This document shows, piece by piece, positions 31,065 through 54,659 of a stretch of 64,000 nt of DNA; the stretch's first letter is position 1; every line of letters begins with the position of its first letter. Made by a program: the position numbers and the translations under genes. The stretch covers positions 802-64,801 of the forward strand of contig CAYMPG010000003.1 of NCBI GenBank assembly GCA_964392455.1. The letters run 5' to 3'. Source of the DNA: an uncultured Clostridium sp. (lineage in GTDB: Bacteria; Bacillota; Clostridia; Christensenellales; CAG-138). A model generated the notes under the pieces. It ran no database searches. It saw only the letters and a program-made list of their open reading frames with translations, and was not told the origin of the DNA.

Positions 31065-31155
31065 CACAGCCTGCCGCTAAATTACATTCATCAGTGAAAT
31101 TTAGAACATTTTCCGCATATATTTAGCATACCAACTTGACGGAGGTGTTTAAATT

Positions 31156-31388
31156 TTGCGTATATTGGTGATCAGTAAGCGCACGCTCATAATTGCTGCC
31201 ATAGTTCTTCTGGTGCTCATCGTTGCCATCCTGCTGCTGCTCAGCTTCGCCCCCGATGCGGCTGCCGCCAGCTCACGCCCCATTGAGGAATACGAGCTGG
31301 AAGTCCTTGCAGGGCAAAAAAAAGAGCTGCCCATCTACAGCGTAGACCGCAGCGATAAAAAAATAGCCCTTACCATTGATGCAGCATG
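31156..31388 (+). pseudogene. 5' fragment (codons 1-77) of a split NodB-type, PdaB-like polysaccharide deacetylase gene
   Basis: The TTG start lies 8 nt after GGAGGTG. An N-terminal TM anchor is followed by 'PIYSVDRSDKKIALTIDAA'. After 31388 the frame continues into unrelated sequence for 7 codons and stops (31408-31410). The missing remainder is found at 43770..44345. Confidence 0.85.
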
Positions 31389-31407
31389 TGCTGCGGCTCA
31401 AATGTGG
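31368..31407. other. attL junction of the inserted element (crossover at or near TG 31387-31388)
   Basis: The host half is 'ccattgatgcagca', then TG, then the element half 'TGCTGCGGCTcaAATGTGG'. The 7 bp CAGCATG (31382-31388) is repeated at 43765-43771. Confidence 0.8.
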
Positions 31408-31424
31408 TAACCGCCGCCCATTAC

Positions 31425-31458
31425 AAAACCCCGCCGAATATCGGTGGGGGTATTTTTC
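31425..31458. terminator. Bidirectional hairpin terminator just inside the element's left end
   Basis: CCCCGCCGA (31429-31437) pairs with TCGGTGGGG (31441-31449). A T-run follows on the plus strand, and TTTTG follows on the minus strand. Confidence 0.6.
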
Positions 31459-31516
31459 TTTCCCTCGTCAAAGCACCTCTGCCCCAGCGTAAGGCCACTA
31501 ATGTGTCATCAAAATC

Positions 31517-32212
31517 GTTTAAGACCCCTCTGGAATTACACAGCTCTCAAACGCGGCGGCGTTCATGGCGTAGTATTCTACGGTTTAAGACCCCTCTGGA
31601 ATTACACAGCTCTCAAACATGACAAGCTCTTTCATGCGGACTTGCTTTGTTTAAGACCCCTCTGGAATTACACAGCTCTCAAACAGACGCTGGAAGAAGC
31701 AAGGGCACGCTTCGGTTTAAGACCCCTCTGGAATTACACAGCTCTCAAACTGCCGAGCCTTATGTTATCGAGAAAGATGAGTTTAAGACCCCTCTGGAAT
31801 TACACAGCTCTCAAACGGTGGCTGAGGCCGCTCCTCTTTCTCCGGTGTTTAAGACCCCTCTGGAATTACACAGCTCTCAAACGGAGCCATCCTTCCAAGC
31901 GAGCTTGACCCGGTTTAAGACCCCTCTGGAATTACACAGCTCTCAAACAAGAACTGAATATAACGAGCCTTAAAGAAAGTTTAAGACCCCTCTGGAATTA
32001 CACAGCTCTCAAACTATTTTTTATGCATTTTCTTTTTCTTATTTGTTTAAGACCCCTCTGGAATTACACAGCTCTCAAACAACCCCCCAAAGCACCTTCC
32101 GCATAGGCTCGTTTAAGACCCCTCTGGAATTACACAGCTCTCAAACGAGCCGACCTCTCAAAGGCTATCCGTGATGGTTTAAGACCCCTCTGGAATTACA
32201 CAGCTCTCAAAC
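31517..32212 (-). CRISPR. CRISPR array: 11 identical 36-bp repeats and 10 spacers of exactly 30 bp
   Basis: The plus-strand repeat is GTTTAAGACCCCTCTGGAATTACACAGCTCTCAAAC at 31517, 31583, 31649, 31715, 31781, 31847, 31913, 31979, 32045, 32111 and 32177. In the transcribed (minus) orientation it is GTTTGAGAGCTGTGTAATTCCAGAGGGGTCTTAAAC, a type II-A-like repeat. Confidence 0.98.
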
Positions 32213-32301
32213 CTCAAATTTGAAAATCGGCCCAGCCAGCCGTGTGTACTTCCAAAGGAACACCTGTGTCTTTATTATACTGTAAAACCATTCTTTTGCA
32301 A
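32213..32301 (-). promoter_or_regulatory. CRISPR leader with candidate promoter
   Basis: This is the 89-bp interval between the csn2 stop and the first repeat. On the minus strand, TTGCAA (32301-32296) is followed by a 16-nt spacer and TATAAT (32279-32274). Confidence 0.6.
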
Positions 32302-32967
32302 CTATATTTCACATAAATCCCTGTCTATAATTGTGCGCCGCTCACCGCTCAGCAGCGGATGCTCACTCCCCTCTATCATAAGTATTCTATGCTTGCGGGG
32401 GCATGTGGTATAAAAGAAATCTGTCAGCTCCTCATCTGAAAAATAGCTTCTTAAATTAACAAAGATAAACAGCTTTTCCCGCTCAAATTCTGCCACCATA
32501 TCCATATAGCTTATTATTGCATCAATATCATTTTCAGGTGCTTCCTCCACAGCAAGGTTTGCCTGTTTTAAAAAGGATGCTATGGTCAGCTTATCGCTAT
32601 CAAAGGTAAGCGGGTATTCTCCGCACAGCTCTGTCAGCAATTGCTCTATACCTGATAATACCAGGTGGTAGCGCTCAAAGTATTCGGATTCCATGGCCCT
32701 GCTCTCTATTTGGGATATTATACGGGTAAGCAGCGTCTTTTTATTGCAGGGGAAGGGAACTATCTCTGTAAACATTTCAGCGTGCTTTGAAATGCTCAGC
32801 AGCTTGCCTTCTGATGAAAGCACGCAGGTTCCCGGTTCATCACAAAGCTGACGGCGTATGTCCTTTATGAGGCTGCGGAAGGCACTTTGATTTTCAATCA
32901 CTATCGAGCAGGCGCAGCCTTCCTCAAGGGGTACAGGCGGGCTATATTGAGAAAAAAGCAGCTTCAA
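32302..32967 (-). CDS. csn2: Csn2 (type II-A adaptation protein)
   Basis: 221 aa, positioned after cas2 and before the array. 'KLFIFVNLRSYFSDEEL' parallels S. pyogenes Csn2 'KLLIFINSGAFLTKDEV'. Confidence 0.85.
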   Translation of the reverse strand: MKLLFSQYSPPVPLEEGCACSIVIENQSAFRSLIKDIRRQLCDEPGTCVLSSEGKLLSISKHAEMFTEIVPFPCNKKTLLTRIISQIESRAMESEYFERYHLVLSGIEQLLTELCGEYPLTFDSDKLTIASFLKQANLAVEEAPENDIDAIISYMDMVAEFEREKLFIFVNLRSYFSDEELTDFFYTTCPRKHRILMIEGSEHPLLSGERRTIIDRDLCEI

Positions 32968-33284
32968 AGAATCACCAGCCTTTCATCGCTAGTTACCACA
33001 TCTGTTTCAAGCCTGCCCACCAGATATTCCATGCCTGCGAATTGCTTTTCCGTAACGGTGAGCATCTGTACCAGGCCTGCCGGCGGCCTGTTTTTGCGTA
33101 CGGTATCCATTGCCGCCTTGCCTGCACCGGCATTTATCAGCAGGCGGCAGTATACCGACTCCTGCATCATTATAAACCCATTGCTTATCAGCGCCTTGCG
33201 AAAGCGCCGATAGTTTCGCCTGTCATCCGGCGTTTCTGTAGGCAGGTCAAAAAATACCAATACACGCATAAATCTGTAGCTCAT
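32964..33284 (-). CDS. cas2: Cas2
   Basis: 'MRVLVFFDLPTETPDDRRNYRRFRKALISNGFIMMQESVY' is typical of Cas2. It overlaps the cas1 stop and the csn2 start. Confidence 0.95.
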   Translation of the reverse strand: MSYRFMRVLVFFDLPTETPDDRRNYRRFRKALISNGFIMMQESVYCRLLINAGAGKAAMDTVRKNRPPAGLVQMLTVTEKQFAGMEYLVGRLETDVVTSDERLVIL

Positions 33285-34153
33285 AGCAGTGGAAACTTTA
33301 TTGCTTCAATGTCATCGCCGTTCAGTGCATCGAATACGCTCTTTGTGTATATCTTTATCGAATTGAGCACGGTCTGTTCGCTGCCATTTATGCTTACTGT
33401 ATCATTAAGCACAGCAATTACCCTGTGCTTTTCCTCAGGGCTAAAATCCCATAGCTCCATGGACAGCACCCTTTTATCTATTAGCGGCCGATATGGCTCC
33501 ATAAGGTCACAGCTCAGATTAAACTGATTGAACACATTGTCATGAAACAGCCCAAATTGCGTTAGATACCCATTTGCCGTCACCTCCCTGTTAAATACAG
33601 AAAGGATTATCCCGTAGCCATAATCCAGCGCCGCATTTATCGGATCCGGCGAAGCCCTTCTAACAAAGTCCATTCCAAACAGCCCATTGAAATAAACCTT
33701 CGCTGCATGGCCCTCCCTGTTTGTCACATCGCCAAATTCAATCTCCCCAATATATCTGGTCAGCTTATCCGCCTCGTTTTCCCTGCCGGCAGCCCGCAAT
33801 ACGCCTGCCTGGTTTTTAATCTTTTCTGTAACTATGGCCGTCCATACGTGGCCCTTGGTCAGGTCTGTCCACTGCATTTGCTGCTTTACCTTGCGTGAAG
33901 TATCGTGGCTGCCATAATACGGGCAAAGCTCTGCGGTGGGATTTCTTTTCCCATCGCAGAACACCACCCTTATCTTTTTATTCACCAGCTCGGATAACAG
34001 ATACCCCGTCATGGATACCGCAGTGCTTTCTATCATCAGCAGAGCAATCTCATCCATAAACACCCGCCTGGTCTCCTCGCCCCGTACCACAAGGTAGCCC
34101 ATTTTATAGTCCAGCTTGCATCTGCTGGAAATCACCACCGTGCGCCAGCTCAT
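33281..34153 (-). CDS. cas1: Cas1 (type II)
   Basis: 290 aa with 'GYLVVRGEE', 'NAALDYGYGIL' and 'HDNVFNQFNLSCDLMEPYRPLID'. Confidence 0.95.
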   Translation of the reverse strand: MSWRTVVISSRCKLDYKMGYLVVRGEETRRVFMDEIALLMIESTAVSMTGYLLSELVNKKIRVVFCDGKRNPTAELCPYYGSHDTSRKVKQQMQWTDLTKGHVWTAIVTEKIKNQAGVLRAAGRENEADKLTRYIGEIEFGDVTNREGHAAKVYFNGLFGMDFVRRASPDPINAALDYGYGIILSVFNREVTANGYLTQFGLFHDNVFNQFNLSCDLMEPYRPLIDKRVLSMELWDFSPEEKHRVIAVLNDTVSINGSEQTVLNSIKIYTKSVFDALNGDDIEAIKFPLL

Positions 34154-34157
34154 ATCT

Positions 34158-37100
34158 TTACAGCAGCGTCAGCAGGTTTATCGACGCCTTCTCATACAGA
34201 CCCGATGGCGATTGATCTATTATGCGAACGTCTGAGTAGCTCTTCTTCCAGTTCGAAAGGCTTGAGCTTAATGTAGGCACCCCTGCCTTTCCAACACCGC
34301 CTATGGCTGTAAAGTCACTTCCACCGCCATTCCTGCTGAATACAACAAGTATTTCAGACAGGATTTTAATTTGCTCATCAGGAGCTAAGCCAATAAACTT
34401 CTTCCGTCCGTTCACGAGCGTATCTATCACGTTGCTGACTGCAGGCCGCTTGTTGAATGGATATGCCGACAGCTTCTGCGTGAGCACATCGTATAGCTCT
34501 ATATTCTTTTCAGGTGTCAGCTTATCATAATCGGCATTCAGCTTGAGCTGCTGATTATCCCTGCGTTTATTCTGGAATGACTCTATGCGCTTAATGTATC
34601 TCTCATCCTCCGGCTCCAGCCGCAGCGGCATCAATGGTGATACAAGCAGCAGCTTTCCGCCGCTGGCTTTTCCGGACAGAGCCACACGGAAGCCGTCCAG
34701 CGACAGAATGGTATTTACCCTGAGTATGCGGGCTTCCATCGGCAATTCCACGCTATCAACAGCCTTGCCGATGACTTTTTCTATGGCCGCCCTGGTAACC
34801 TCTCTGGCTGCCGCATAGCTTTCAGCAAACTTTGCTGCCATTATCAGCTCAATAGGAACTATCATCAGCTCGCTTTTTTTACCCAGATAATACTTTGCCA
34901 GCACGAAGAACGTGGCTGTAGGCTTTCTGTATCCACCATACTTCTCAGGTGGCAGGTTGTTTTTGCGGGGCAGCAGTTCGCTTTTTAATGTAGCGCCCAT
35001 TGGCTGCTGATCATACAGCGAGCCTTTGCGGCAGAATGCATACCGTGTTACGTGGATATGGTTCTTCTGCACTATTCGCTTGACCCTGCCGATATCTGCC
35101 TCTCCGCGCCATACGCATCCGTTTTTCCCTACCGGATGGTCAAATATCTCCTTTGTCTTCATGCTGTATTTCTGATCCAGCCTGAAGTAGTTTTTATTGA
35201 ATTTTTCATGGTATACGTTGCCTACCACCACATTCAGGTAAGCATCCTTGGCATGGTGCAAATCATTCACCGTGCGGCATTTCAGCATTTCAAATTCATG
35301 ACGAAAATCAGCTACCAGCCCAGCCTTTACGTACACTATCTCGGTATCAGGATAACGCTCCTTAAGGATAGATGTGACTGCCTTGGTGGACTGTCGGGTC
35401 TCTACCAGCTGGCGCTGTATAAAGCCCATCAGCTCATCATCGGTAAACTGCGTGGTTCTGGTAAGCCTGCGATACTTTTCTTCGGTAATAAGATTCTTAT
35501 CATGCAGCTTTTTCCAGAACACGCCCATGCGGCTTCTTATATCCGCCTTAATCGGGTATTTGTCCCCTTTATCTCCGTTACACTCAGAACGACACAGCAC
35601 CTTGTTGTTGAGTATACTGTCATCCTTTACCTTGCACTGGGGATAAATGTGATCCACGTCATAGATTTTTTGATCCGATAAATGTTCCAGCGCAATAGGC
35701 TCCCCGCTATACATACACTTGCCCAGCTGCATAAAGTAAAGGTACAGCTTGTCGCTTTGCAGGGCGTTATCGTCCTTTGTCTCCAGCAGGTTTTTCAGTT
35801 CACGTACTTCGCTCTCACTAAACTCCTTATACGCTTCCAGTATCTGAGTGCGGCGTGACTTTGTGCGCTTTCCCTTTTGTTCCTCGTTGGCTCCCCGTGC
35901 CATTTCTACAAATATCCTGCTGGGTGGCGCTCCCAGGGCTTTCACAACGTCCTTTACCACATCAAGCGTGCGATATATCTGACGCCGTACCGTATTGGAT
36001 AAATACAGCTCATCCATCCGTTTGGACAGGCTCTTTGGGTTTTCTCTATAATACTCGGTTACTTCATTTTTGATATTATCTGCAAATGTGAACTTATCCG
36101 TCAGCAGCTCCATGATGGTATAGTTGGTTTCCCACATAGCCTGCAGCATGGTGAATACCTGGCCCGTACCCGAATTCCTTTCCATTCCTTCAATTTCACA
36201 GAGGAGTCTGCGTGAAAGCCTCCCGAAGTCCTTAAACTTCTGATTGGAAAGGTATTTGGCATCTTCCGTGCATATATTGGGAAATTCTTTTGATATCCAT
36301 CGGATAAAGCGTGCCTTGTCCTCGGTGCAGGTGATGCGCTCTATAATCTGCTCCGCCTGATCCACCGTTAGCATTCCTGCATCCAGGAGCTTCCGGAAAG
36401 CATGCCATGGTTGCAATGAAGACTTTATGCCCTCAGTATCCACTCCGCTCAGTATATCGGAGCTGAGCATGTATCCTTCGCTTATGCAGAACTCCTTCAG
36501 TGCTTTAAAGGTTACACGTTTTTTTCTTTCAAATAGCTCACGGTATATGCTTTGCTTCTGTTCTACAGTGATTGGGATGCCATTTATTTTTATAGGATTG
36601 ATTTCATTAAGAACAGTAAACTTTGTATAATACAGCGAATTCTTGGGCAATACATACTCCGAAGGGAGATATGTACAGCGGCCAATCATATTATGAATAA
36701 ACCTATCCTCGCTCTTGTCCAGATCCACCATATCCTCAAAATTCCACGGGTATATCCTGCCTGCCTTTCTTTCCAGCCAGGCATAGCTGCTGCGATTATT
36801 CAGCGGCCCTACATAGTATGGAATTCTAAACCTGAATACGGATATTATCTTTTCAGATACAGTAAGCCCGTCGCTATCCCTTTCCCTGAGAAATGGTAGA
36901 TATTGCTCTGCATTTTCCAGTATTTTCTTCAGCTCCACCAGATAAAGCTGATATGGTATGACACGGTTGTCTGTGTCCTTCTGCTTCGGCATAAATGTAT
37001 ACATCTCCAGCCGGGCAAGCATATCATCATATTCTGCTTTGTCAGCCTGCTGCACATCAATATTCTTTACTATTTTCTTTATATAATCGCAAAAGTCCGT

Positions 37101-38243
37101 TTTTTTCGCATATTTGTCCGTCTTCTTTCCTTTGCCAGAGGAATGGTGCGAATATGCACAGTAATTCTTTTCTGTTGCGTCATTAAACACTTCATCGTAT
37201 TTACCCGGTGCGTATTTTTTAACAAAGCCTTTTAGGTAAGCAAGGTCGGCTTTATGCTGCTGGTATATTTTTACCTTGGCGCTGGATATATACTTTTCCT
37301 CCTGAAGAACATCGGTAAGCACAGACCAATCGTACAATTCCTTCAGCTTGCGTACCAGCTCTGCATCATCGCCCAGCTGCATAAGTACAGACTCCAATTT
37401 CCCTTCATCGCCGCCGAGATCTATGGACTCAGCACTTGCATACTCGTCCGCCTTATGCGGGAAAAGCTTTCCCGGCATCACCTTGCCCCCGCACAAAAGC
37501 GATATCATGCCTGAGCGAGATATTATCGGAGCCGCCTTATCCTCATCATCAAGGTGCATATCGGTCGGCTTTTTGCCATCAAATAAAAGCTCATTAAATG
37601 CTTTCACCTTATCGCTTATGCGAAGCTTTGTTTTGAGTATGCGGGCAAAGTCCTCTACGTTACAATACCAGGGCTTTTCCCCATCAAACCAGTTTATAAA
37701 GCCATCATATATTTCGGATATATCAGTAGCAGCCTCTACGTTATCCTCGCTGACCGAGCTGAGAAAATGCCCTCTATGAGCCACCAGCCATGCACAAGCA
37801 ATATATACCAGCCTCACATCATGGGGTTCGTGTGATTCCATCAGGTCAACGATAAGGTGGTGAATAGTTGGATAGGCCTTATAATAGTCCTTTTCACTAT
37901 AGTCAGCATCATTAAAGTACACACCCTCAGAGCCGGTTGTGGACTTGTCCTCCTGCCATAATGCACTTTCGCGTATGCGGATGAAAAATTGCGGATCTTT
38001 AGCCGTTATCGGTACAGCTAACAATTCCTGAATAAGCTGTACCCGCTGCTTACGCCTATCAACACGCCGCCGTGCGGTACGATTTGCGCGGCGTTCTTCC
38101 GAAAGGGCGGCACTATCAAAAGTCATGACACCAGCCATGGGCTCTCCTTTAAATTTTTGGAGGTTGTATTCCGTATCGGTAACAGCATAGCCTACAGAGT
38201 CAGTGCCACAATCCAATCCCAGATAGTATTCTTTGTTTTTCAT
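34158..38243 (-). CDS. cas9: Cas9 (type II-A, 1361 aa), nuclease motifs intact
   Basis: RuvC-I is 'YYLGLDCGTDSVGYAV'. HNH is 'DVDHIYPQCKVKDDSILNNKVLCRSECNGDKGDKYP'. The RuvC-III region is 'NDLHHAKDAYLNVVVGN'. 'IPYYVGPL' is also present. Confidence 0.97.
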   Translation of the reverse strand: MKNKEYYLGLDCGTDSVGYAVTDTEYNLQKFKGEPMAGVMTFDSAALSEERRANRTARRRVDRRKQRVQLIQELLAVPITAKDPQFFIRIRESALWQEDKSTTGSEGVYFNDADYSEKDYYKAYPTIHHLIVDLMESHEPHDVRLVYIACAWLVAHRGHFLSSVSEDNVEAATDISEIYDGFINWFDGEKPWYCNVEDFARILKTKLRISDKVKAFNELLFDGKKPTDMHLDDEDKAAPIISRSGMISLLCGGKVMPGKLFPHKADEYASAESIDLGGDEGKLESVLMQLGDDAELVRKLKELYDWSVLTDVLQEEKYISSAKVKIYQQHKADLAYLKGFVKKYAPGKYDEVFNDATEKNYCAYSHHSSGKGKKTDKYAKKTDFCDYIKKIVKNIDVQQADKAEYDDMLARLEMYTFMPKQKDTDNRVIPYQLYLVELKKILENAEQYLPFLRERDSDGLTVSEKIISVFRFRIPYYVGPLNNRSSYAWLERKAGRIYPWNFEDMVDLDKSEDRFIHNMIGRCTYLPSEYVLPKNSLYYTKFTVLNEINPIKINGIPITVEQKQSIYRELFERKKRVTFKALKEFCISEGYMLSSDILSGVDTEGIKSSLQPWHAFRKLLDAGMLTVDQAEQIIERITCTEDKARFIRWISKEFPNICTEDAKYLSNQKFKDFGRLSRRLLCEIEGMERNSGTGQVFTMLQAMWETNYTIMELLTDKFTFADNIKNEVTEYYRENPKSLSKRMDELYLSNTVRRQIYRTLDVVKDVVKALGAPPSRIFVEMARGANEEQKGKRTKSRRTQILEAYKEFSESEVRELKNLLETKDDNALQSDKLYLYFMQLGKCMYSGEPIALEHLSDQKIYDVDHIYPQCKVKDDSILNNKVLCRSECNGDKGDKYPIKADIRSRMGVFWKKLHDKNLITEEKYRRLTRTTQFTDDELMGFIQRQLVETRQSTKAVTSILKERYPDTEIVYVKAGLVADFRHEFEMLKCRTVNDLHHAKDAYLNVVVGNVYHEKFNKNYFRLDQKYSMKTKEIFDHPVGKNGCVWRGEADIGRVKRIVQKNHIHVTRYAFCRKGSLYDQQPMGATLKSELLPRKNNLPPEKYGGYRKPTATFFVLAKYYLGKKSELMIVPIELIMAAKFAESYAAAREVTRAAIEKVIGKAVDSVELPMEARILRVNTILSLDGFRVALSGKASGGKLLLVSPLMPLRLEPEDERYIKRIESFQNKRRDNQQLKLNADYDKLTPEKNIELYDVLTQKLSAYPFNKRPAVSNVIDTLVNGRKKFIGLAPDEQIKILSEILVVFSRNGGGSDFTAIGGVGKAGVPTLSSSLSNWKKSYSDVRIIDQSPSGLYEKASINLLTLL

Positions 38244-38280
38244 ATTGACATCCTCCGGAAAGATATGGTATTTTGGTCAT

Positions 38281-38399
38281 GTAAGAACAGTCCCCTCTGG
38301 ACTTACACAGCAAGTTCAAATAAGATTTCATCGAAATCGTCAGCTTGTCTGACCGTACAAGAGTACGACTTAAAGATGCCCGATTGGGTGTCTTTTTTT
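38281..38399 (+). ncRNA. tracrRNA (divergent from cas9)
   Basis: The anti-repeat 'CCCCTCTGGACTTACACAGCAAGTTCAAATAAG' is complementary to the crRNA repeat with the usual bulge. It continues like the Sp tracrRNA 'AGCAAGTTAAAATAAGG'. It ends in the hairpin GCCCGATTGGGTG plus T7 (38392-38398). Upstream are TTGACA (38245-38250) and TGgTATTTT. Confidence 0.75.
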
Positions 38400-38698
38400 G
38401 TTTGTTTTCGCAGGGGTTCTTTCAGATAGACGGTTAATTCTTTTTTCGATATGGTAAGATGTGTGTTGATTATACTCTATTTTTCTCCATATCGCAACAA
38501 ATTATCTTGTGGCAGCTCGTATAATTTTGCTTTTATTTTACTCCTGTACATTTTTTCCTGTTCGGATGCATTTTATCAACAATTATAATGTATTTTTGTC
38601 AGGTAAGCACACAGCCCTAAAGCCGAACCCGAGCAGCCTATTTATGTGCCTTGAAAGGCGCTCCCCGCCATAACCATATTTTCCCTGTACTCCGGGCT

Positions 38699-40204
38699 TT
38701 ATTCGCCCCACCTGTAGCGTATTTGGACAACGCCATTTGGAAATACCTTTACACAATCAAGTATTATGCCTATCGTTGCCCGGTCCAGCTTTATAATGGC
38801 TCTTTCATTCGCCAGCCTGTTCAGCCACTGTGCTGTACAGGGAGCGCTTTCTTCTTCGCAGATGGTCTGCCGCAGCTTCTCCATGCGATGCTCCAGGGCT
38901 GCCTGAATTTCTGTAAATTCATTACGGTTCAGCTTATTATTCTTATATCTCTCATAGGCATACCGCTTATCCATGGCAAGGCCGGACATGGCAAGCGCCA
39001 GCGCTGCGAGGCTTTTCTCTTTTCTGCGCCGTGCGTCCTCTGCCATACTGCCGCATATACCGGCTACGTCTGCTTTTTCAATTAGGCGATTTACATCCTC
39101 CAGCACAATGCGGCTCAGCTTTGCTTCATATATTCTGTGGCTGCCGCAGGCACATGGCCCGCCAGTTTTATACCGTGTACAGAAATATGCCCCTCTACCA
39201 TGGTAATTTACCAGCTTCATCCTGCCGCCGCAGGCTCCGCAGTATATCAGCCCAGCGAAAAGGCTGCCTGACCCACGAAATGCCCTGCCAGTGCTGCGCC
39301 CGGCAAGCATTGCCTGCGCCTGCTCCCATTCCTGCCGCCCGATGATTGCGGGATGAGTATCCCGATGGATGATCCATCGCTCCCGTGGAATGGAGAAAGC
39401 CCTATCATGCATGCTGCTCTTTCTGCTTTTGCCTTCAGGCGTATCCCCTGCATATACAGGGTCACGCAGCAGCCTATCCACGGAAAATATGCTCCACGCC
39501 CAGTTTTTTGTATTGGGTGCAGCCCTTTTATAAAACCCGCTTTCTGCCCGCCTTACCCCCGGGCAGGGTATTTCCCGCCGGTTCAGTTCGCTTGCAATGG
39601 CGGTTTTGCCCATGCCCCCAAGATACATGGCGTATATCTGCCTTACAGTTTCGCTGTCGCCATTTGGAATAAGGCTGCCATCTCCACCGGCTGCTTTGTC
39701 ATAGCCATACGGCGGCGATGGGCAAAGGTACTTCCCCTGGGCTCTGCGGGTGCTTAAGGCCGTACGCACCTTTTTTGAAATATCCTCTGCATACTGGGCA
39801 TTCATAAGGTTAACAACTGGAAGCCTTATGCCATCATATGGGCTCGTGACGCTATCCATATTGTCATTGATGGCGATAAAGCGCACGCCAAGGCGGGGAA
39901 ATACCCGCTCAAGATATTCACCCGCCAGTATAAGGTCGCGGCCAAAGCGGCTAAGGTCCTTTACCACCACGCAATCTATGCAGCCCGCCTCGATATCCCG
40001 AATCATCTCATTAAAGGCAGGCCGGTCAAAGCATACGCCGGAATAGCCATCATCGGAATAATGCCCTGCTATGCTCAGCTCTTCGCTGCGGAGGCAATAC
40101 TCCTCCAGTAGCTGCCGCTGCACCCGTATGCTTTCGCTGGGCGCATCCTCCCCATCCTCCCTGGATACCCTTTCATACAGAGCCGCCCTGTATACCTTCT
40201 GCAT
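38699..40204 (-). CDS. Large serine recombinase (501 aa)
   Basis: The N-terminal resolvase domain has 'AALYERVSREDG..SIRVQRQLL..DDGYSG' and 'VVVKDLSRFGRD'. A recombinase domain and the zinc ribbon 'CGACGGRM..FCTRY..CACGSHRI' follow. The C-terminal coiled-coil tail is TnpX/TndX-like. Confidence 0.9.
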   Translation of the reverse strand: MQKVYRAALYERVSREDGEDAPSESIRVQRQLLEEYCLRSEELSIAGHYSDDGYSGVCFDRPAFNEMIRDIEAGCIDCVVVKDLSRFGRDLILAGEYLERVFPRLGVRFIAINDNMDSVTSPYDGIRLPVVNLMNAQYAEDISKKVRTALSTRRAQGKYLCPSPPYGYDKAAGGDGSLIPNGDSETVRQIYAMYLGGMGKTAIASELNRREIPCPGVRRAESGFYKRAAPNTKNWAWSIFSVDRLLRDPVYAGDTPEGKSRKSSMHDRAFSIPRERWIIHRDTHPAIIGRQEWEQAQAMLAGRSTGRAFRGSGSLFAGLIYCGACGGRMKLVNYHGRGAYFCTRYKTGGPCACGSHRIYEAKLSRIVLEDVNRLIEKADVAGICGSMAEDARRRKEKSLAALALAMSGLAMDKRYAYERYKNNKLNRNEFTEIQAALEHRMEKLRQTICEEESAPCTAQWLNRLANERAIIKLDRATIGIILDCVKVFPNGVVQIRYRWGE

Positions 40205-40206
40205 GG

Positions 40207-41778
40207 CTATGCATCATCCCGAGAGCAGGCCCCGGCAATATCCGAAAAGCGATAGCATATCTTTACACAGTCATCATTGTACACATATATGCCCTCCACC
40301 GTTGCAGCAAGCGTCACCCGGTCCAGCGATTCTATTCGCCTCTGCTCAATGAGCTGTCCTGCCCATTTTTTACTTGGCAGGGCTTGCTGCTCCACAATCT
40401 CATTCTCCACCTGTAGCTGCCGCCTGAGGGCTTCCTCGCCTGCCTCATACTCTGCCCTGTATGAAATATAATCCTCGCCGGAAAGCAGCCCGGCCTTATA
40501 ATCCTCATAAAGGCTGCGGCGCAGTCTCTCCATTCGCTCAATGGATTTTTGTATCCGCTCTTTTTCTGCCGTGTGCCGGGTGGGCGGCACTGTCTTTGGT
40601 ATTCTTATGCTGCTCATATCAGGTATGGCTTCAAGCATGGAGTTCAGATCGCCAAGTAATATGGCCGCCACAGTGCTGCGCCATATCCTGCTGCCGGAAC
40701 AGGCCCCTGTGCCATATCGCTCATAGCTGCCGCAGGAATATTTCGCCTTTTCCCCCTTGCCACGGGACACCATGCTCCGGCCGCACAGCCCGCATTTTAT
40801 AAAGCCCCTGAGCGGATCCTCCAGCACGGGGCCATGGCTCCTCTCCCTCACCTTAAGCAGCCGCTGTACCCTCTCCCACTGTTCAGCCGAGACCACCGGG
40901 TCATGGGTGTTTTGCTTAACTATCCATTTATCCCGCTCCTGCAGCCGGGCTTTGCCATGCATGGCTGGCCGGCAGTACTTTCCCTGCACCATGTGGCCTG
41001 CATATACGGGATTGCACAGTATCCTGTGAATGGTGGAATACGTCCAGTAGGTGGTACCATCCAGCTTAAGTCCGTTTTTATAGTTTTCCCCCATAAGCCG
41101 CTTGTATTGGCTGGGGCAGGGTATACCCTCATCATTCAGTCGACGGGCAATGGCATCCTTGCCCTGGCCCCCTTCAAACATATCGTATATCCTCCTCACC
41201 ACCCCTGCTGCCCCCTCGTCAATCACAAGATGGCTATGGGCCTCAGGGTCACGGCAATAGCCATAGCTGCAAAACGCCCCTATAAACTCACCCCGTCTGC
41301 GCCTTGTGTCGAAGGAGCTCCTTATCTTCCCGGAAATATCCCTGGCGTATTGAGAATTGAATATATTCTTTATTGGCAGCATCATGTCATATGCTCCATT
41401 GATGCTGTCCACATTGTCATTTATGGCGATAAAGCGCACGCCCTTCTGGGGCAATATGCGCTCAAGATACCTGCCGGTATCTATATAATCCCTGCCAAAG
41501 CGGCTCAAATCCTTTACGATGATACAGTTTATCCTGCCTTCCTCCACAGCCTCCATCATCTGCCTGAATGCAGGCCGTTCAAAGCTGGTGCCGGTAAAGC
41601 CGTCATCCACATAGTGGCAGGCTATCTCCATATCCTCCGCCTGATGGCAGTAGCTTTCCAGCATATTTAGCTGGCTGGTAATGCTGTCGCTCTCCGCCTT
41701 ATCCCCATCCTCACGGGAGAGCCTTGCGTACAATCCGCATCTGTAAATCTGCCGCCCGGGCTTTGCCATATCCTGCAC
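40207..41778 (-). CDS. Large serine recombinase (523 aa), tandem paralogue
   Basis: 'CGLYARLSREDGDKAESDSITSQLNML..DDGFTG', 'IIVKDLSRFGRD' and the zinc ribbon 'CGLCGRSM..YSCGSY..GACSGSRI' are present. Its stop is 2 nt before the downstream recombinase start. Confidence 0.9.
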   Translation of the reverse strand: MQDMAKPGRQIYRCGLYARLSREDGDKAESDSITSQLNMLESYCHQAEDMEIACHYVDDGFTGTSFERPAFRQMMEAVEEGRINCIIVKDLSRFGRDYIDTGRYLERILPQKGVRFIAINDNVDSINGAYDMMLPIKNIFNSQYARDISGKIRSSFDTRRRRGEFIGAFCSYGYCRDPEAHSHLVIDEGAAGVVRRIYDMFEGGQGKDAIARRLNDEGIPCPSQYKRLMGENYKNGLKLDGTTYWTYSTIHRILCNPVYAGHMVQGKYCRPAMHGKARLQERDKWIVKQNTHDPVVSAEQWERVQRLLKVRERSHGPVLEDPLRGFIKCGLCGRSMVSRGKGEKAKYSCGSYERYGTGACSGSRIWRSTVAAILLGDLNSMLEAIPDMSSIRIPKTVPPTRHTAEKERIQKSIERMERLRRSLYEDYKAGLLSGEDYISYRAEYEAGEEALRRQLQVENEIVEQQALPSKKWAGQLIEQRRIESLDRVTLAATVEGIYVYNDDCVKICYRFSDIAGACSRDDA

Positions 41779-41781
41779 AGA

Positions 41782-41913
41782 TTATGCCTCCGGCTGCCTG
41801 TCCTGGTGGGCCTTTATCAGCTCTATCACCACCTGCTCAGGGCTCTTTTCGCCGGAAAAAAACCTTACCACCTTTATGCCGCCTTCCATTTCATCGTTTG
41901 CCCGGGTATCCAT
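41782..41913 (-). CDS. Small ORF (43 aa) immediately upstream of the recombinase pair; possible directionality/accessory factor
   Basis: The product is 'MDTRANDEMEGGIKVVRFFSGEKSPEQVVIELIKAHQDRQPEA'. GGAGGAGG lies about 7 nt before the ATG, and the stop is 3 nt before the recombinase ATG. It is below the ORF-track length cutoff and was found by hand translation. Confidence 0.45.
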   Translation of the reverse strand: MDTRANDEMEGGIKVVRFFSGEKSPEQVVIELIKAHQDRQPEA

Positions 41914-42014
41914 AGAGCGCCTCCTCCTTTTTTCTTTTATAAATCTCTATTTCGCCCATACGGCCCATATGAATGGTTTCACAAATAAAATCCCTGGCCT
42001 GTGCTGTTTATATG

Positions 42015-42050
42015 CAAAAACCCCACGGGCTGCATTTGCACCCATGGGGC
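42015..42050 (-). terminator. Rho-independent terminator after the cNMP-binding genes
   Basis: On the minus strand, CCCCATGGG-loop-CCCGTGGGG is followed by TTTTTG. Confidence 0.65.
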
Positions 42051-42085
42051 TTTGCTAAATTCAATGGGCTGTCTACGGGCTGGGG

Positions 42086-42586
42086 TCAGTATATGCGCCC
42101 ATTGATGTATGTATCCGATATGGCCTCCACATAGTCGTTTATAAACTTGCCAACCTTTTCCCAGAACATTCCCTCCCGGGGCTTATCTTCCTCCTCCTTC
42201 TTTACGGCCTCTGCCACCGCCCGGCAGGTCTCCAGGTAATCTCTGGTAAGCTCCCGCGTGCGCCGGCTCAGGTTTTTCATAATGCACAGCAGCGCCTCAG
42301 GGTCATCTCCAAAGTAATCTGCAAAGGCCTCCCCGGTGACCAGCCTGGTTTCAACATCATCCAGCGCAACTGCCGTGGCAGATCGGCGCATGGAGTCCAC
42401 CAGGCCAATTATGCCCACAGTGGCGCCGGGGCCGCCCTTTACCTCGGTAAGCTTGAATTCATCCGGCATGCCGTAGTTTTTATATATGCCCACCGTGCCG
42501 CTTCGCAGGTCATACATCCACATTTCGAAGCTGCCCTCTTTATATATGACATCGCCCTTTTTAAACAGGCGGGTGGTATCTTCCAT
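42086..42586 (-). CDS. Cyclic-nucleotide-binding-domain protein without a DNA-binding domain (166 aa)
   Basis: 'FKKGDVIYKEGSFEMWMYDLRSGTVGIY..VGIIGLVDSMRRSATAVAL' is a Crp-like beta-barrel. It is followed only by a helical tail. ATG at 42586 lies 1 nt after the upstream stop. Confidence 0.75.
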   Translation of the reverse strand: MEDTTRLFKKGDVIYKEGSFEMWMYDLRSGTVGIYKNYGMPDEFKLTEVKGGPGATVGIIGLVDSMRRSATAVALDDVETRLVTGEAFADYFGDDPEALLCIMKNLSRRTRELTRDYLETCRAVAEAVKKEEEDKPREGMFWEKVGKFINDYVEAISDTYINGRIY

Positions 42587-42587
42587 T

Positions 42588-43013
42588 TTACTTTTCCTCC
42601 ACTGCCTTTTCCCCTTGTGAGCTAAGAGCCTCTGCAAGGGCACTGCGGGCCTCCATGTAATCTCTGGTGATATCACGGATGCGCCTGCACATATTCTGTA
42701 TAATATCCACCACCCTCTCAGGCCGCTCATTCAGATAAAACCTGAAGGTCTCTCTTGTGATTATCTCAAGCCTCGTTTCCCCATCCATGGCTATTGCCGT
42801 GGCGCTGTGAGGCACCTGATCCACAAAGCTCATTTCTCCAAACACCTCATCGCCACGGCGCAGAGCCAGCATTTTTTCATTCTCCGTGCCGTAGTCCACA
42901 TATATGCCCACGCTGCCCCAGCGTATATCATACATACACTCGGCAGGCTCTCCCTGCCTGAATATTATCTCTCCCTTTTTATAGGTTCTATATTCCCTGC
43001 TTGATGCTGCCAC
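42588..43013 (-). CDS. Cyclic-nucleotide-binding-domain protein without a DNA-binding domain (141 aa), paralogue
   Basis: 'YKKGEIIFRQGEPAECMYDIRWGSVGIYV..FGEMSFVDQVPHSATAIAM' is present. It shares the helix 'RRIRDITRDYMEA' (versus 'RRTRELTRDYLET') with its paralogue. The GTG start is uncertain. Confidence 0.7.
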   Translation of the reverse strand: MAASSREYRTYKKGEIIFRQGEPAECMYDIRWGSVGIYVDYGTENEKMLALRRGDEVFGEMSFVDQVPHSATAIAMDGETRLEIITRETFRFYLNERPERVVDIIQNMCRRIRDITRDYMEARSALAEALSSQGEKAVEEK

Positions 43014-43058
43014 CCTGCAAATTCCTGCCTTTCATAATGCTGCCTGTCAAATGCCCTT

Positions 43059-43592
43059 TTACACGCGCCTGCCCATATCATAGGCATCCGCCATGGCCTT
43101 TGTACCCTTTATTTCTCCCTTTTCATAAACGCCCATGCCGCATATCACGCCCATTTCCCTTGCGCCCTCTATGCAGTCAGCATAGCCTCTCAGGCAGGCC
43201 AGCGGCGTATCCGCAGAAGCCAGCTCCTCATCCGCCGCAGTCACTATATAATACAGATCCTTGTCCTTTACCTCAGTCCAGCGGGCGACAGTTCTATCAA
43301 TAAGTGCCTTAAGCTGGGCGCTGATGGAATAAAAGTAGACGGGGCTTGCAAGCAGGATAACATCTGCATCTATCATCTTTTGCAGCACCTGACCCATATC
43401 GTCATCTATAACGCAGCTTCCTTTTTTACAGGCATAGCAGCCCCTGCAAAACCCTATATTTTTCTCGGCCACCCTTATCTTCTCCACGGTATGGCCCATT
43501 TCCATTGCACCCCGCATAAATTCATCGCAGAGCATATCAGAATTGCCGCCCTTTCGGGGACTGCCGGACAGTATCAATACATTTTTACCCAT
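43059..43592 (-). CDS. Flavodoxin-like fold NAD(P)H-dependent FMN reductase/iron-sulfur flavoprotein family protein
   Basis: 'KNVLILSGSPRKGGNS' and 'DADVILLASPVYFYSISAQLKALIDR' are present. GGAGG lies 8 nt before the ATG at 43592. Confidence 0.8.
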   Translation of the reverse strand: MGKNVLILSGSPRKGGNSDMLCDEFMRGAMEMGHTVEKIRVAEKNIGFCRGCYACKKGSCVIDDDMGQVLQKMIDADVILLASPVYFYSISAQLKALIDRTVARWTEVKDKDLYYIVTAADEELASADTPLACLRGYADCIEGAREMGVICGMGVYEKGEIKGTKAMADAYDMGRRV

Positions 43593-43661
43593 TTTATTGC
43601 CTCCACTTATCATACTGGCTGCATCACACAGCCTCTGCCCCCATAGCTCGAGCGCACCTTA

Positions 43662-43691
43662 AATATACAATGAAACGCCTCTGCATTTCAA
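43662..43691 (-). promoter_or_regulatory. Candidate promoter for the flavodoxin/cNMP operon, just inside attR
   Basis: On the minus strand, TTGAAA (43691-43686) is followed by an 18-nt spacer ending in TG and then TATATT (43667-43662). Confidence 0.5.
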
Positions 43692-43744
43692 CAGTCTTCC
43701 GTCTGAAGCCTGTCTTAAAATGCCCCATATTCCATACATGCTTT

Positions 43745-43785
43745 TCCATCCACATTATCAGCCTCAGCATGGGAAGACGACAAGA
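43745..43785. other. attR junction of the inserted element (crossover at or near TG 43770-43771)
   Basis: The element half is 'CCACATTatcAGCCTCAGCA', then TG, then the host half 'ggaagacgacaag', which resumes the deacetylase reading frame. Confidence 0.8.
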
Positions 43786-44345
43786 CTCCATTCATACTGG
43801 AAACGCTGGATAAATACGGCATAAAGGCCACATTCTTCCTCTGCGGTTTTTGGGTGGAGGCATACCCCGATGAGGTAAAGCAGATATTCGAGGCCGGCCA
43901 CCAGCTTGGCAATCATACCTCCACTCACCCTCACATGAACCAGCTCTCGGTCTCCGAGATAAAAAAGGAGCTCACCCATTTTGACGACATGGTGGAAAAG
44001 CTCACCGGCCAGCGCACCACCGCCTTTAGAGCCCCCTACGGCGAATATAACGACACCGTTATCACCACCGTAAGGGATATGGGGTATGAAGTATACCAGT
44101 GGAGCATTGACACCATCGACTGGCGGGAGGAGCGCAGCGCACAGACCATACTGGATACGGTGCTGCCAAAGCTGCACGATGGCTGCATAATCCTCTGCCA
44201 CAACAATGGCTATAAAATAAAGGAGTATCTTCCTGCGCTCATTGAAGCAGCCCAGGGACAGGGATACAAATTCGTTACGGTAAGCGAGCTCACGCTCAGC
44301 GGCAATACCATAATAGATGTAAACGGGGTGCAGAAGGCGGCATAA
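43770..44345 (+). pseudogene. 3' fragment (191 codons) of the split PdaB-like polysaccharide deacetylase gene
   Basis: The frame reads 'WEDDKTPFILETLDKYGIKATFFLCGFWVEAYPDEV..GHQLGNHTSTHPHM..RAPYGEYN..WSIDTIDW..ILCHN'. These are NodB motifs 2-5. The in-frame stop upstream at 43704-43706 lies inside element sequence. The ORF-track ATG at 43854 is internal. Confidence 0.85.
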
Positions 44346-44731
44346 TAGTCTCCCCCACTATATCGTCCAAACGCAGTCACATTATTGCTGCAAAGTAGCC
44401 TGTTTGTCACTTTATAGGAAGGGGCTGGAATACTCTTCCAGTCCCTAGATATGTTCTTAAATAAATCTGCGGCCAGTCATGGGCTGCCTCCCACCTCAGA
44501 TTATCCACAACATTATCCGGAGCTTTACCTTGTCTTTATACTAATAAACAGAGAACGTCATGTCTTTTTTCGGCAGCATGCACAAATAATCTTCTAACGG
44601 CAGCTTCGAAATACGCATATAGCCAGCAATGCCTATTACCACATATATCTGAACAAACTCAAAAGGAGCGTCCCTTTATGACACTCCTTTTTTATTTCTA
44701 ACTGTCAGCACATGGTCTAATAATAATATCC

Positions 44732-45682
44732 TTACATCTCCGCCCATCCATGCAGCTTCTTTAATCCACACTCTGCCACAGCCGCACCACCCATAAGACC
44801 GCCAAACTGGCCAAACCGGGTAGGCTGAATGACTAGATGACGATTTGCATTTTTGTAAATGGACTGATCAATCTTTTGCAGCATGGCCTCTTTAAACAAA
44901 TCAAATGACAGGCTCACACCTCCGCCTATTATCACCTTGCTGGGATTTAATATATTGCATGCCGCAGCCAACGCCTTGCCAATATAGTATCCCTCCAGGC
45001 GATACGTTTCCAGCGCTGTTTCATTGCCTCTACGTGCAAGGCCAGCTATAAGCTCTGCATTTGCCGGTATACCATCTATCAGCTCAGGGCCACCCAGCTC
45101 AATAAAGTTTCTCGCAATGGCAGGCCCGGCAGCATACATTTCCAGGCAGCCCCTTGCGCCGCAATTGCATCGTCTCCCGCCATCCACTACAGTAACGTGG
45201 CCAAGCTCGCCTGCATTTCCCGCCATACCGTAGTATATTCTGTCTTTCATAAACACTGCGCCGCCGCAGCCATTTGAAACAGTAAGATATACAAAGTCCG
45301 TTACATCGCGGCATTGGCCATACAGTCTTTCTGCCAAAGCGCATGCCTGACCATCATTGTCAATATAGGCCGGCAGATTAAATGCCTCCGTGAGTTCGGC
45401 TGCCACGTTTATGCCTCCCACACCTGAAAAACACGCCTCTACCCATACGCCATTGGCCGGGTCTGCCAGGCCCGGGATAGTTACCCCTATTGCCACAGGC
45501 AGCAGTTCACCATGTATTTTCAAAAGCTCTTTGGCAGAGGCTATTATGCTGTGCATTATTCCTCTCCCTGTAAGCTCTTTCCATTCGCCTCTGATACTGT
45601 CCACGATGTTTCCATAGCCATCCACCAGCCCAACAATATATTTTGAGCCGCCTATGTCTATAGATAATACAACATCTCTCAT
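44732..45682 (-). CDS. ROK family sugar kinase
   Basis: 'VLSIDIGGSKYIVGLVD', 'DNDGQACALAE' and 'GHVTVVDGGRRCNCGARGCLE' are present. There is no N-terminal HTH. Confidence 0.85.
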   Translation of the reverse strand: MRDVVLSIDIGGSKYIVGLVDGYGNIVDSIRGEWKELTGRGIMHSIIASAKELLKIHGELLPVAIGVTIPGLADPANGVWVEACFSGVGGINVAAELTEAFNLPAYIDNDGQACALAERLYGQCRDVTDFVYLTVSNGCGGAVFMKDRIYYGMAGNAGELGHVTVVDGGRRCNCGARGCLEMYAAGPAIARNFIELGGPELIDGIPANAELIAGLARRGNETALETYRLEGYYIGKALAAACNILNPSKVIIGGGVSLSFDLFKEAMLQKIDQSIYKNANRHLVIQPTRFGQFGGLMGGAAVAECGLKKLHGWAEM

Positions 45683-45775
45683 GTACTCTCCCCCCACCCA
45701 TTAAGACACGCAAGCCCCGGTATGCCCGAGGCTTGCAAACCTGTTCTGTAATTTTTATTCTTTCACAATTTACCC

Positions 45776-46765
45776 TTATTCTGTTTTTAGGGCCGAATCG
45801 AATGCGATATCAGAGGGTTCAAAGTTTATCTTTTTTGTAAACTCATAAGCCTCAGTAGCTCCAAAGGTGCGCTCCATTCCACTATCCTCCCATTCCACAG
45901 AAAGGGGACCATGATAGCCCATCTGGTTCAGTTCGCGAATGATGCCATCAAAATCCACATTGCCATGGCCCAGAGACACAAAGTTCCAGCCGCGGCGGGT
46001 ATCGCCAAATTCTATATGGCTGCCCAGTATACCTGCCCGTCCGTCCAAAGTGACCTTAACATCTTTCATATGTACATGATATATCCTGTTTGAAAAATCG
46101 CGCAGGAATACGCAGGGATTTACCCCCTGCCATACAAGATGAGAGGGATCAAAATTAAGTCCCAGGGTAGGACGGTGATCAAACACTTCAAACAGCTTCT
46201 GTGTGCTGTAATAATCAAATGCTATCTCCGTAGGATGCACTTCCAACGCAAACTTCACGCCACATCTGTCAAATTCGTCAAATATGGGAGTCCACAGCTC
46301 TTTTATCTTCGCAAAGCCGGCATCTACCATACTCTGGGGGGTCTGCGGGAAAGAATACCAATAATACCATATGGGAGAGCCCAAAAAACCGGTAACTACC
46401 TTTATGCCCAATTTATGTGCGGCCCTTGCTACCACCTTCATTTCCTCTATAGCCCATTCCCTTATGGCCTCTGGCTTGCCCGAAAGAGCCGCAGGGGCAA
46501 AATTATCCAGGCGTTCATCCCAGTTATCACCCACGCACTGTCCTACAAGATGTGCACCAAGTGCCCAGCACTGTAAGCCATATTTTGCCAGGGTAGCCTT
46601 AAAGCTTTCAGCATAGCCGTCATCATCCACGACCTTATGTACGTCCAGATGGGCATGACATGCTATCTCCAGCCCGTCATAACCGATCTCACTTGTAAGC
46701 TTACAAAGTTCCTCCAGGGACATATCGCCAAACTGTCCTGTTGTTATGGTGATGGGTCGTTTCAT
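45776..46765 (-). CDS. Sugar phosphate isomerase/epimerase (xylose isomerase-like TIM barrel)
   Basis: 329 aa with 'FALEVHPTEIAFD' and 'IYHVHMKD' typical of the AP endonuclease 2/TIM-barrel family. Confidence 0.8.
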   Translation of the reverse strand: MKRPITITTGQFGDMSLEELCKLTSEIGYDGLEIACHAHLDVHKVVDDDGYAESFKATLAKYGLQCWALGAHLVGQCVGDNWDERLDNFAPAALSGKPEAIREWAIEEMKVVARAAHKLGIKVVTGFLGSPIWYYWYSFPQTPQSMVDAGFAKIKELWTPIFDEFDRCGVKFALEVHPTEIAFDYYSTQKLFEVFDHRPTLGLNFDPSHLVWQGVNPCVFLRDFSNRIYHVHMKDVKVTLDGRAGILGSHIEFGDTRRGWNFVSLGHGNVDFDGIIRELNQMGYHGPLSVEWEDSGMERTFGATEAYEFTKKINFEPSDIAFDSALKTE

Positions 46766-46775
46766 GAGTGCCTCC

Positions 46776-47816: not shown

Positions 47817-47859
47817 ATCTTTATATCCTTTCTCGTATTTTAGAGTTTACTTTCGTACT

Positions 47860-51626: not shown

Positions 51627-51692
51627 TACAACTTTCCTCCTTGGAAAATATTATATTTGATAATCGGCCGCTAAGCCGCATTATCCACTGTA

Positions 51693-52667: not shown

Positions 52668-52677
52668 TTTAATCCTC

Positions 52678-54653: not shown

Positions 54654-54659
54654 ACCCTT

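Follow-up and report, generated by a model that had tools for sequence, protein, structure and literature searches.

How can a bacterium keep what appears to be a working gene when its coding sequence is cut in two? This question is raised by a 64,000-nt stretch of DNA (contig CAYMPG010000003.1 of an uncultured Clostridium sp.; hereafter, the window), in which an element of 12,383 bp (31389-43771), carrying two large serine recombinase genes and a CRISPR-Cas9 locus, separates codon 77 from codon 78 of a gene for a NodB deacetylase. We propose that this is probably a new sporulation gene-intervening element, with a new target gene, the deacetylase, and with Cas9 as its cargo. Loci from other strains and relatives are designated by L numbers; the closest relatives with a name are metagenome-assembled genomes labeled "Clostridia bacterium," Christensenellaceae, and Oscillospiraceae. 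The parts of the split gene and the ends of the element are as follows.

31156..31388, plus strand: 5' fragment of the PdaB-like NodB deacetylase gene, codons 1-77 and the first two bases of Trp78
31382..31388, unstranded: attL core CAGCATG, with the probable crossover dinucleotide TG at 31387-31388
31389..43771, unstranded: intervening element, 12,383 bp, bounded by two CAGCATG cores, its ends forming a palindromic attP
31389..31407, unstranded: P' arm of attP, TGCTGCGGCTCAAATGTGG, inverted repeat of 43750-43769
43750..43769, unstranded: P arm of attP, CCACATTATCAGCCTCAGCA, conserved in L090
43765..43771, unstranded: attR core CAGCATG, 7 bp
43770..44345, plus strand: 3' fragment of the deacetylase gene, Trp78 to the stop codon, reading WEDDKTPFILE...

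A transmembrane anchor and the first part of the catalytic domain, up to motif 1 (TIDAA), are encoded by the 5' fragment, which ends ...KKIALTIDAA; the H-S/T-x-x-H motif is found in the 3' fragment. Both fragments share one reading frame, and the insertion point lies in the conserved motif-1 region, between TIDAA and WEDD. Joined, they give a 268-aa protein with a single complete Polysacc_deac_1 domain (Pfam, E 2e-38) that aligns at 100% coverage with thousands of intact homologues, the best of them at 87% identity. A blastn alignment with the intact gene of the nearest relative, L003, maps both break points to one and the same 7-base stretch (window 31388 corresponds to L003 9474, and window 43765 to L003 9468). 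An earlier note on this DNA had described the interruption as precise and in frame; its coordinates are right, and the joined open reading frame (ORF) aligns end to end with intact orthologues. Read unspliced, the ORF of the 5' fragment continues beyond the junction to a stop codon at 31410, within the element. We considered and rejected the possibility that the 3' fragment is expressed independently: it lacks a conserved in-frame start codon, an in-frame ATG in L090 being out of frame in the window through a 1-nt indel, and the next start codon would give a 163-aa product without motif 1.

Joining the right and left ends of the element yields CCACATTATCAGCCTCAGCA-TG-TGCTGCGGCTCAAATGTGG, an 18/21 inverted repeat around a nonpalindromic TG, with a palindrome score that was matched by 0 of 5000 random centers in the window. 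As judged from sequence, this reconstructed attP has the anatomy of a large serine recombinase attP, and the 7-bp core is present at both junctions, as expected from the earlier view that the att sites are intact. The 12.4-kb segment is, by this anatomy, one integrated by a large serine recombinase at codon 77/78, with the TG within motif 1. The junctions predicted after excision are ...CCTTACCATTGATGCAGCATGGGAAGACGACAAGACTCC... for attB and ...CCACATTATCAGCCTCAGCATGTGCTGCGGCTCAAATGTGG... for attP. Look-alikes of the att arms were not found in L009 or L012, two loci with related recombinases that are described below.

The same insertion occurs in other strains. Its attL junction is found, identical in all, in L092, L175, L176, and L177 (four Sequence Read Archive runs), its attR junction in L090, and the interior of the element in L093 and L094. 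Because four other sequencing runs also yield both junctions and the interior, we rejected misassembly or a chimera. Nucleotide identity is 94-98% inside and outside the element across five datasets including the window; in comparison with the window, strains from the same runs are ~94-95% identical inside the element, and their left and right flanks are 94.3% and 95.2% identical, respectively. Genes of the element have synonymous substitution rates (dS) of 0.06-0.33; dS is 0.15 in the 3' fragment of the deacetylase gene and 0.19 in the flanking gene for lacto-N-biose phosphorylase. The simplest reading of these values is one ancestral insertion that co-diverged with the chromosome while the hosts diverged by ~5-6% at the nucleotide level. 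No intact deacetylase allele of this species was found among 5.8 billion protein clusters, and every intact member of the relevant cluster belongs to the L003 type.

Between the window and the ~94%-identical element-bearing strains, the 3' fragment has 17 synonymous and 3 nonsynonymous changes, with a ratio of nonsynonymous to synonymous rates (dN/dS) of 0.044. The 5' fragment differs at 4 of 231 nt, comprising 3 synonymous changes and one change of the start codon, with no further nonsynonymous change. For the split gene in total, 20 synonymous versus 3 nonsynonymous changes argue against neutrality, under which 77% of changes would be nonsynonymous (binomial P 1e-10; 23 substitutions, effectively two strain lineages compared). 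Stop codons and frameshifts are absent from the split gene across the element-bearing strains. In the 70 nt upstream of the start codon there are 0 differences, versus 5.7% in the neighboring cobalamin genes. The substitution pattern indicates that the split gene is under strong purifying selection. Because such selection is hard to explain for a permanently destroyed gene, the gene is probably reassembled by excision, and the composite gene would thus, on this indirect argument, be functional even though it is split in the germ line.

Where the gene would be needed is suggested by its upstream region, which contains the following feature.

31092..31125, plus strand: predicted sigmaE/K-type promoter of the split gene, -10 element GCATATATT at 31115-31123, followed by the ribosome-binding site GGAGGTG at 31141-31147 and the TTG start at 31156

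The sequence GCATAnnnT is present 37-44 nt upstream of the start codon in 50 of 74 nonredundant orthologues from many genomic contexts, compared with a mean of 3.2 and a maximum of 8 in shuffle controls. The full motif of the orthologues is G-n-A-A-w-A-w-T N13-14 GCATA[T/G]A[T/A]T, in which the -10 is preceded, at a distance of 13-14 nt, by an A-rich -35-like element containing a conserved G. It does not fit sigmaG, for which we take the consensus -10 to be CATnnTA. It matches the -10 (for example, CATATAAT) that the sigmaE and sigmaK promoters of clostridia and Bacillus have in common, and three polysaccharide deacetylases of C. difficile are sigmaE-dependent (PMC3789822). When both strands of the window were scanned with a position weight matrix (PWM) trained on orthologues from other genomes, excluding the window and its closest kin, the promoter of the split gene was the top site, at 22.9 bits versus 14.0 bits for the runner-up. 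We thus predict a sigmaE/K-type, that is, mother-cell, promoter for the split gene. The third-best site (13.6 bits; 4665-4698, minus strand) is located in a 400-bp intergenic region upstream of a MatE-family transporter gene (3011-4387).

The earlier note had ascribed to the interrupted gene the architecture of the PdaB/cortex type of sporulation deacetylase, an N-terminal anchor and a NodB domain. For the joined protein, PdaB ranks first among NCBIfam models (PdaB 201.2 bits, YlxY 153, PdaA 143, PgdA 125), but the score remains below the curated cut-off of 237.4 bits of the PdaB equivalog (TIGR02764). These scores partly support a placement with the sporulation deacetylases over the vegetative PgdA types (PdaB 201 versus PgdA 125 bits), with PdaB as the best family of which the protein is formally not a member. 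In a relative whose orthologue is 72% identical, spoIIID scores higher than its equivalog cut-off. In L008, whose spoIIID exceeds that cut-off, the region upstream of spoIIID contains the third-best PWM site of the locus.

The means for excision would be provided by the recombinase module of the element.

38699..40204, minus strand: rec501, large serine recombinase, 501 aa, with Resolvase, Recombinase, and Zn_ribbon_recom domains
40207..41778, minus strand: rec523, large serine recombinase, 523 aa, with Resolvase, Recombinase, and Zn_ribbon_recom domains
41782..41913, minus strand: orf43, conserved 43-aa ORF 3 nt upstream of rec523, candidate recombination directionality factor
42014..42057, minus strand: terminator-like hairpin followed by UUUUU, -31.5 kcal/mol for a 91-nt stretch, z -2.55

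That the element encodes large serine recombinases, as had been noted previously, is borne out by the full domain sets of rec501 and rec523, which share 37% identity and have a dN/dS between strains of 0.23-0.25 and 0.13, respectively. Among solved structures, rec523 is closest to the catalytic domain of TnpX, a recombinase of clostridial transposons (E 2.8e-29); SprA (YokA) matches less well (E 1e-14). Scores against the Ccr equivalog models are 113 and 76 bits for CcrB (cut-off 900) and 40 and 53 bits for CcrA (cut-off 700). Relatives of rec523 are at most 43% identical in IMG/VR viral contigs versus 50-64% in other metagenome or genome contigs, and among the viral-contig relatives a deacetylase fragment, as a sign of insertion at the same site, was found in 0 of 80 loci. 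The small ORF upstream of rec523 has a motif, V[IV]R.FSGE[KR]SPEQV..ELIKAH, that is also conserved ahead of the rec523 homologues of L090, L009, and L012; orf43 has no Pfam or PHROG family match, and we consider it a candidate directionality factor. Both recombinases and orf43 are still intact. The hairpin stands between orf43-rec523-rec501 and an operon of other genes in the element. In L012:1-9896, from a buffalo-cecum metagenome-assembled genome (MAG), a rec523-like recombinase (73% amino acid identity to rec523 over the first 128 residues) and an orf43 homologue precede an intact deacetylase gene by ~9.6 kb; L001, a relative that is nearly identical to L012, parts from it ~100 bp upstream of the deacetylase start.

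The CRISPR-Cas part of the cargo is as follows.

31517..32212, minus strand: CRISPR array, 11 identical 36-nt repeats and 10 spacers of 30 nt, with a leader at 32213-32301
32302..32967, minus strand: csn2 (Pfam Cas_Csn2, E 3.7e-23)
32964..33284, minus strand: cas2, ORF whose homologue in L093/L094 has a CRISPR_Cas2 domain
33281..34153, minus strand: cas1, ORF whose homologue in L093/L094 has a Cas_Cas1 domain
34158..38243, minus strand: cas9, 1361 aa (Pfam Cas9_REC, Cas9_PI, HNH_4, Cas9_RuvC, and bridge helix)
38289..38320, plus strand: tracrRNA anti-repeat, divergent from cas9, matching the repeat in 27 of 32 aligned columns with one 2-nt gap

By gene content, this is a complete type II-A CRISPR-Cas system, with cas9, cas1, cas2, csn2, tracrRNA anti-repeat, and array. 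Its G+C content of 43-49% is below that of the left flank (53-56%) and also below that of the recombinase module, and in L178, the closest other locus of the module, with a 71%-identical Cas9, there is no recombinase within 3.5 kb. For these two reasons, we regard the cas module as captured cargo. The two newest spacers have no exact match in IMG/VR, and none of the spacers matches any of the relatives' loci compared. In L177:1275-1489 (SRR19576314), only one CRISPR repeat lies between the 5' deacetylase fragment and csn2, so the array is either much shorter in that strain or was collapsed by the assembler; the contigs L092, L093, and L094 all terminate at the array. A prophage was rejected as the nature of the element, as all ORFs of at least 100 aa are accounted for without structural, packaging, or lysis genes. 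A Pfam domain scan and PHROGs identified no phage, replication, or conjugation genes in the element, the PHROGs matches being the two integrases only, and Pfam found no relaxase or Mob domain among its ORFs.

The remaining genes of the element form an operon at its right end.

42086..42589, minus strand: cNMP-binding-domain protein, 167 aa (Pfam cNMP_binding)
42588..43013, minus strand: cNMP-binding-domain protein, 141 aa (Pfam cNMP_binding)
43059..43592, minus strand: NADPH-dependent FMN reductase/flavodoxin-like protein, 177 aa from the ATG after GGAGG (Pfam FMN_red; gene call from L090)
43662..43691, minus strand: sigma-70-like promoter of the FMN-reductase operon, TTGAAA-18-TATATT, a match to the consensus only

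These genes are placed inside the element because the palindromic attP is formed by its outer ends only. Synteny with L003 had suggested an element ending at 42083, with the cNMP/FMN-reductase genes being chromosomal. We rejected this end for the present genome: the block lies within the split in every strain compared, which together with attP is evidence against it. In L003, the block follows three xanthine-dehydrogenase-family genes downstream of the intact deacetylase gene, and in L091:735-1689 it lies between an Na/Pi-PhoU gene and a full-length dinB-like gene, so the cNMP-binding pair, with or without the FMN reductase, is found in three contexts in three relatives (window, L003, and L091). 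The two cNMP-binding proteins (42086-43013) have weak domain-level PADLOC matches to the sensor domain of a Pycsar TIR effector (E 1e-4 to 6e-9), and neither has an effector domain; with only these weak sensor-domain matches, a defense system was rejected. A deacetylase gene broken at the same codon is present in L048:1-560 (JAZNUG010000212.1), where the homology begins with IDAAWEDD and where the gene is fused at the break to a truncated Y-family (DinB-like) polymerase gene, whose final 144 codons lie upstream of the break in opposite orientation. The MAG of L048 also has an intact deacetylase copy, L010, that is 91% identical in nucleotide sequence. The positions of the block in L003 and L091, together with the break in L048, point to a recombination hot spot and to a history more complicated than a single insertion.

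How could the gene be used? In the mechanism that we propose, sigmaE would become active in the mother cell, and rec523, perhaps with rec501, and orf43 would recombine attL with attR at the TG. The element would be freed as a 12.4-kb circle, and the reading frame would be restored as ...ALTIDAAWEDDK..., with GCA GCA TGG GAA encoding A-A-W-E. The forespore copy would stay split and retain Cas9. We infer both the excision and its restriction to the mother cell; because the excision would be confined to this terminally differentiated cell, the spore chromosome would retain the element and Cas9. Developmental excision during sporulation, the hypothesis of the earlier note, is in our judgment somewhat to the probable side of even. 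Its computationally testable predictions were borne out, and none of the refuting findings named in that note was encountered. It gains from the precise split, the PdaB-like protein, the retained promoter, the co-divergence, and the purifying selection, but it lacks a convincing promoter for the recombinases.

Several observations weigh against this interpretation. Upstream of orf43-rec523, where a sigmaE/K-type site had been proposed as a check, the best PWM site has only 8.2 bits and ranks 24th in the window, with ~0.06 sites of that score expected by chance in the 300-bp stretch; no clear shared promoter motif is present upstream of the orf43-rec523 homologues in L009 and L012. The window contains no sporulation genes besides the deacetylase, which itself falls short of the PdaB cut-off. 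The selection test has the narrow base given above. TnpX, to which the recombinases are nearest, is not known to need a directionality factor for excision and insertion. Finally, the cNMP/FMN-reductase block of L003 (13838-15348) is outside the intact deacetylase gene, 3.7 kb downstream of it.

The same locus could instead operate as a reversible or stochastic switch untied to sporulation, with TnpX-like excision and reinsertion in growing cells, as in "active lysogeny" or Tn4451-type circles; part of the population would then have an intact deacetylase gene, and the element would be retained through reintegration. Such a switch would explain the purifying selection equally well, it agrees with TnpX as the best solved relative of rec523 and with the lack of a strong sporulation promoter ahead of the recombinase operon, and in C. 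botulinum the yin element is found in excised form regardless of growth phase (PMC10747680). However, the interrupted gene has a mother-cell-type promoter, so it should be needed only where loss of the element costs nothing, and without replication or transfer functions an element excised in the germ line should be lost, yet this one is fixed and has co-diverged in five datasets. We consider a switch unlikely. It is improbable, in our view, that the CRISPR-Cas9 island is simply stuck in a dispensable or redundant deacetylase gene and that the gene is dead. Large serine recombinases often target conserved coding sequence, L048 is a second genome with this gene broken at the same codon, and B. 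subtilis pdaB mutants are reported to have only mild defects, all of which would be compatible with plain insertional inactivation. A dead gene is hard to reconcile, however, with 20 synonymous versus 3 nonsynonymous changes and no stop codon or frameshift across the element-bearing strains (P 1e-10), with a promoter (0/70 nt) and a 5' fragment (4/231 nt) that are more conserved than the cobalamin flank (5.7%), or with the intactness of both recombinases and orf43.

Recent independent insertions would remove the force of the selection argument, since diverged copies would have entered the same attB in each strain and the selection on the gene would predate them. The conserved attB motif, the different sequence at the same site in L048, and the low G+C of the CRISPR-cas module (43-49% versus 53-56% in the left flank), which implies a foreign origin, could be cited in favor of this history. 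We regard it as very improbable nonetheless: the divergence of the element equals that of the flanks on both sides (~94-95% nucleotide identity and dS 0.15-0.25), both junctions are identical in all strains, no empty site of this species is on record, and the element has no transfer genes. Developmental excision thus remains the interpretation that we favor for the split deacetylase gene.

The surroundings of the split gene and related loci show further rearrangements. Window positions 44347-57873 are a 13.5-kb sugar-utilization block (ROK kinase, AP_endonuc_2, GFO_IDH, ABC transporter genes, and others) that is absent in L090, where the lacto-N-biose phosphorylase gene comes immediately after the deacetylase stop codon. 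This block is 88% identical to L003 in nucleotide sequence (one protein 98% in amino acid sequence), versus 72-80% on the cobalamin side, which suggests that it was recently exchanged horizontally. Extra copies of the deacetylase 3' end are present ~8 kb downstream of the intact gene in L001:18646-18858, L002:8990-9202, and L008:18839-19075. They bracket variable islands; the island of L001 contains TIR-domain genes, and the island is missing from L048. In L008:911-2904 (= L026; Christensenellaceae MAG chromosome OY762936.1), a gene for a 472-aa large serine recombinase directly precedes an ORF of 164 aa. Because the match of this ORF to the SigG equivalog (256 bits) covers only residues 92-253 of the latter, the ORF appears to be a 5'-truncated sigG; spoIIID is 4 kb from this pair. 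A split sigG, a forespore gene, would be unlike every known mother-cell intervening element.

Among known systems, gin comes closest, ahead of skin and SPbeta. It interrupts gerE, a sporulation gene of Bacillus cereus ATCC 10987, and encodes the recombinases GirA/B/C and GirX, a 42-aa directionality factor (PMC5595907). Like gin, the element described here is a nonphage element within a gene, here a putative sporulation gene, with several large serine recombinase genes and no phage genes, a tiny candidate directionality factor (43-aa orf43), and att sites with a short common core (7 bp here, 9 bp in gin) in an imperfect inverted repeat. It differs in its target, a PdaB-like deacetylase gene in an uncultured gut Clostridia bacterium as opposed to gerE in Bacillus, in its complete type II-A CRISPR-Cas9 cargo, and in its TnpX-like recombinases; sporulation-specific excision has been demonstrated for gin and is predicted here. 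The skin/SPbeta-like label of the earlier note fits the gene-intervening anatomy but not the recombinases, which are closest to TnpX rather than to SpoIVCA or SprA. With skin (in sigK; SpoIVCA, or CD1231 and CD1234) and SPbeta (in spsM; SprA and SprB), the element has in common that a recombinase-bearing element splits a gene in frame, here a predicted mother-cell gene, and, as we propose here, that it is retained vertically and the gene is reconstituted by excision. By contrast, those elements are prophages or remnants of 14-134 kb, whereas this one has 12.4 kb and no phage genes; in comparison with SPbeta, rec523 also matches SprA (YokA) less well than TnpX (E 1e-14 versus 2.8e-29).

Tn4451/Tn4453 (TnpX) and Tn5397 (TndX) resemble the element in that rec523 is closest to the TnpX catalytic domain. 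These transposons excise as circles at the central dinucleotide. Unlike them, the element has no mobilization or relaxase gene and no conjugation module, has two recombinases and a conserved small upstream ORF, and is fixed at one site where it has co-diverged with its host. Staphylococcus SCCmec cassettes with type III-A CRISPR-Cas and CcrA/CcrB (PMC10434264) are likewise chromosomal cassettes that carry an entire CRISPR-Cas system, can be excised together with it, and are mobilized by paired large serine recombinases. They differ in CRISPR type (III-A versus II-A here), in their recombinases (Ccr models reach at most 113 bits here versus cut-offs of 700-900), and in having no link to sporulation. 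SCC integrates at the 3' end of rlmH without destroying rlmH.

To our knowledge, the sporulation gene rearrangements tested so far all concern cultured species of Bacillus, Geobacillus, and Clostridium, and in most of them a prophage remnant is involved. Known sporulation gene-intervening elements are skin, SPbeta, vfbin, vrin, gin, and yin, and the published target genes are sigK, spsM, spoVFB, spoVR, gerE, and yabG (PMC4191935, PMC5595907, and PMC10747680). Among the papers in the library searched, none was found to link such an element to a deacetylase gene, and a search for CRISPR and the skin element yielded no paper with CRISPR-Cas as cargo of such an element. The compact att/recombinase/small-ORF module may be of use for genome engineering and is testable in vitro, and purifying selection on the fragments of a gene across insertion-bearing strains provides a computational test for genes that are split but still used.

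In conclusion, we consider it an even chance that this is the first sporulation gene-intervening element with an adaptive immune system, that is, a predicted, apparently active type II-A locus in a domesticated, nontransmissible cassette that is removed from the mother-cell chromosome to rebuild a sigmaE-type gene for a deacetylase of cortex or coat and is inherited by the spore. If true, a pdaB-like gene would be the seventh target beside the six published ones, and the phenomenon would be extended to uncultured gut Clostridia and to a gene for a cell-wall-modifying enzyme. Such elements could then persist through cargo that benefits the host, not just as decaying prophages, and CRISPR-Cas9 immunity would be inherited via the spore at no cost to the interrupted gene.

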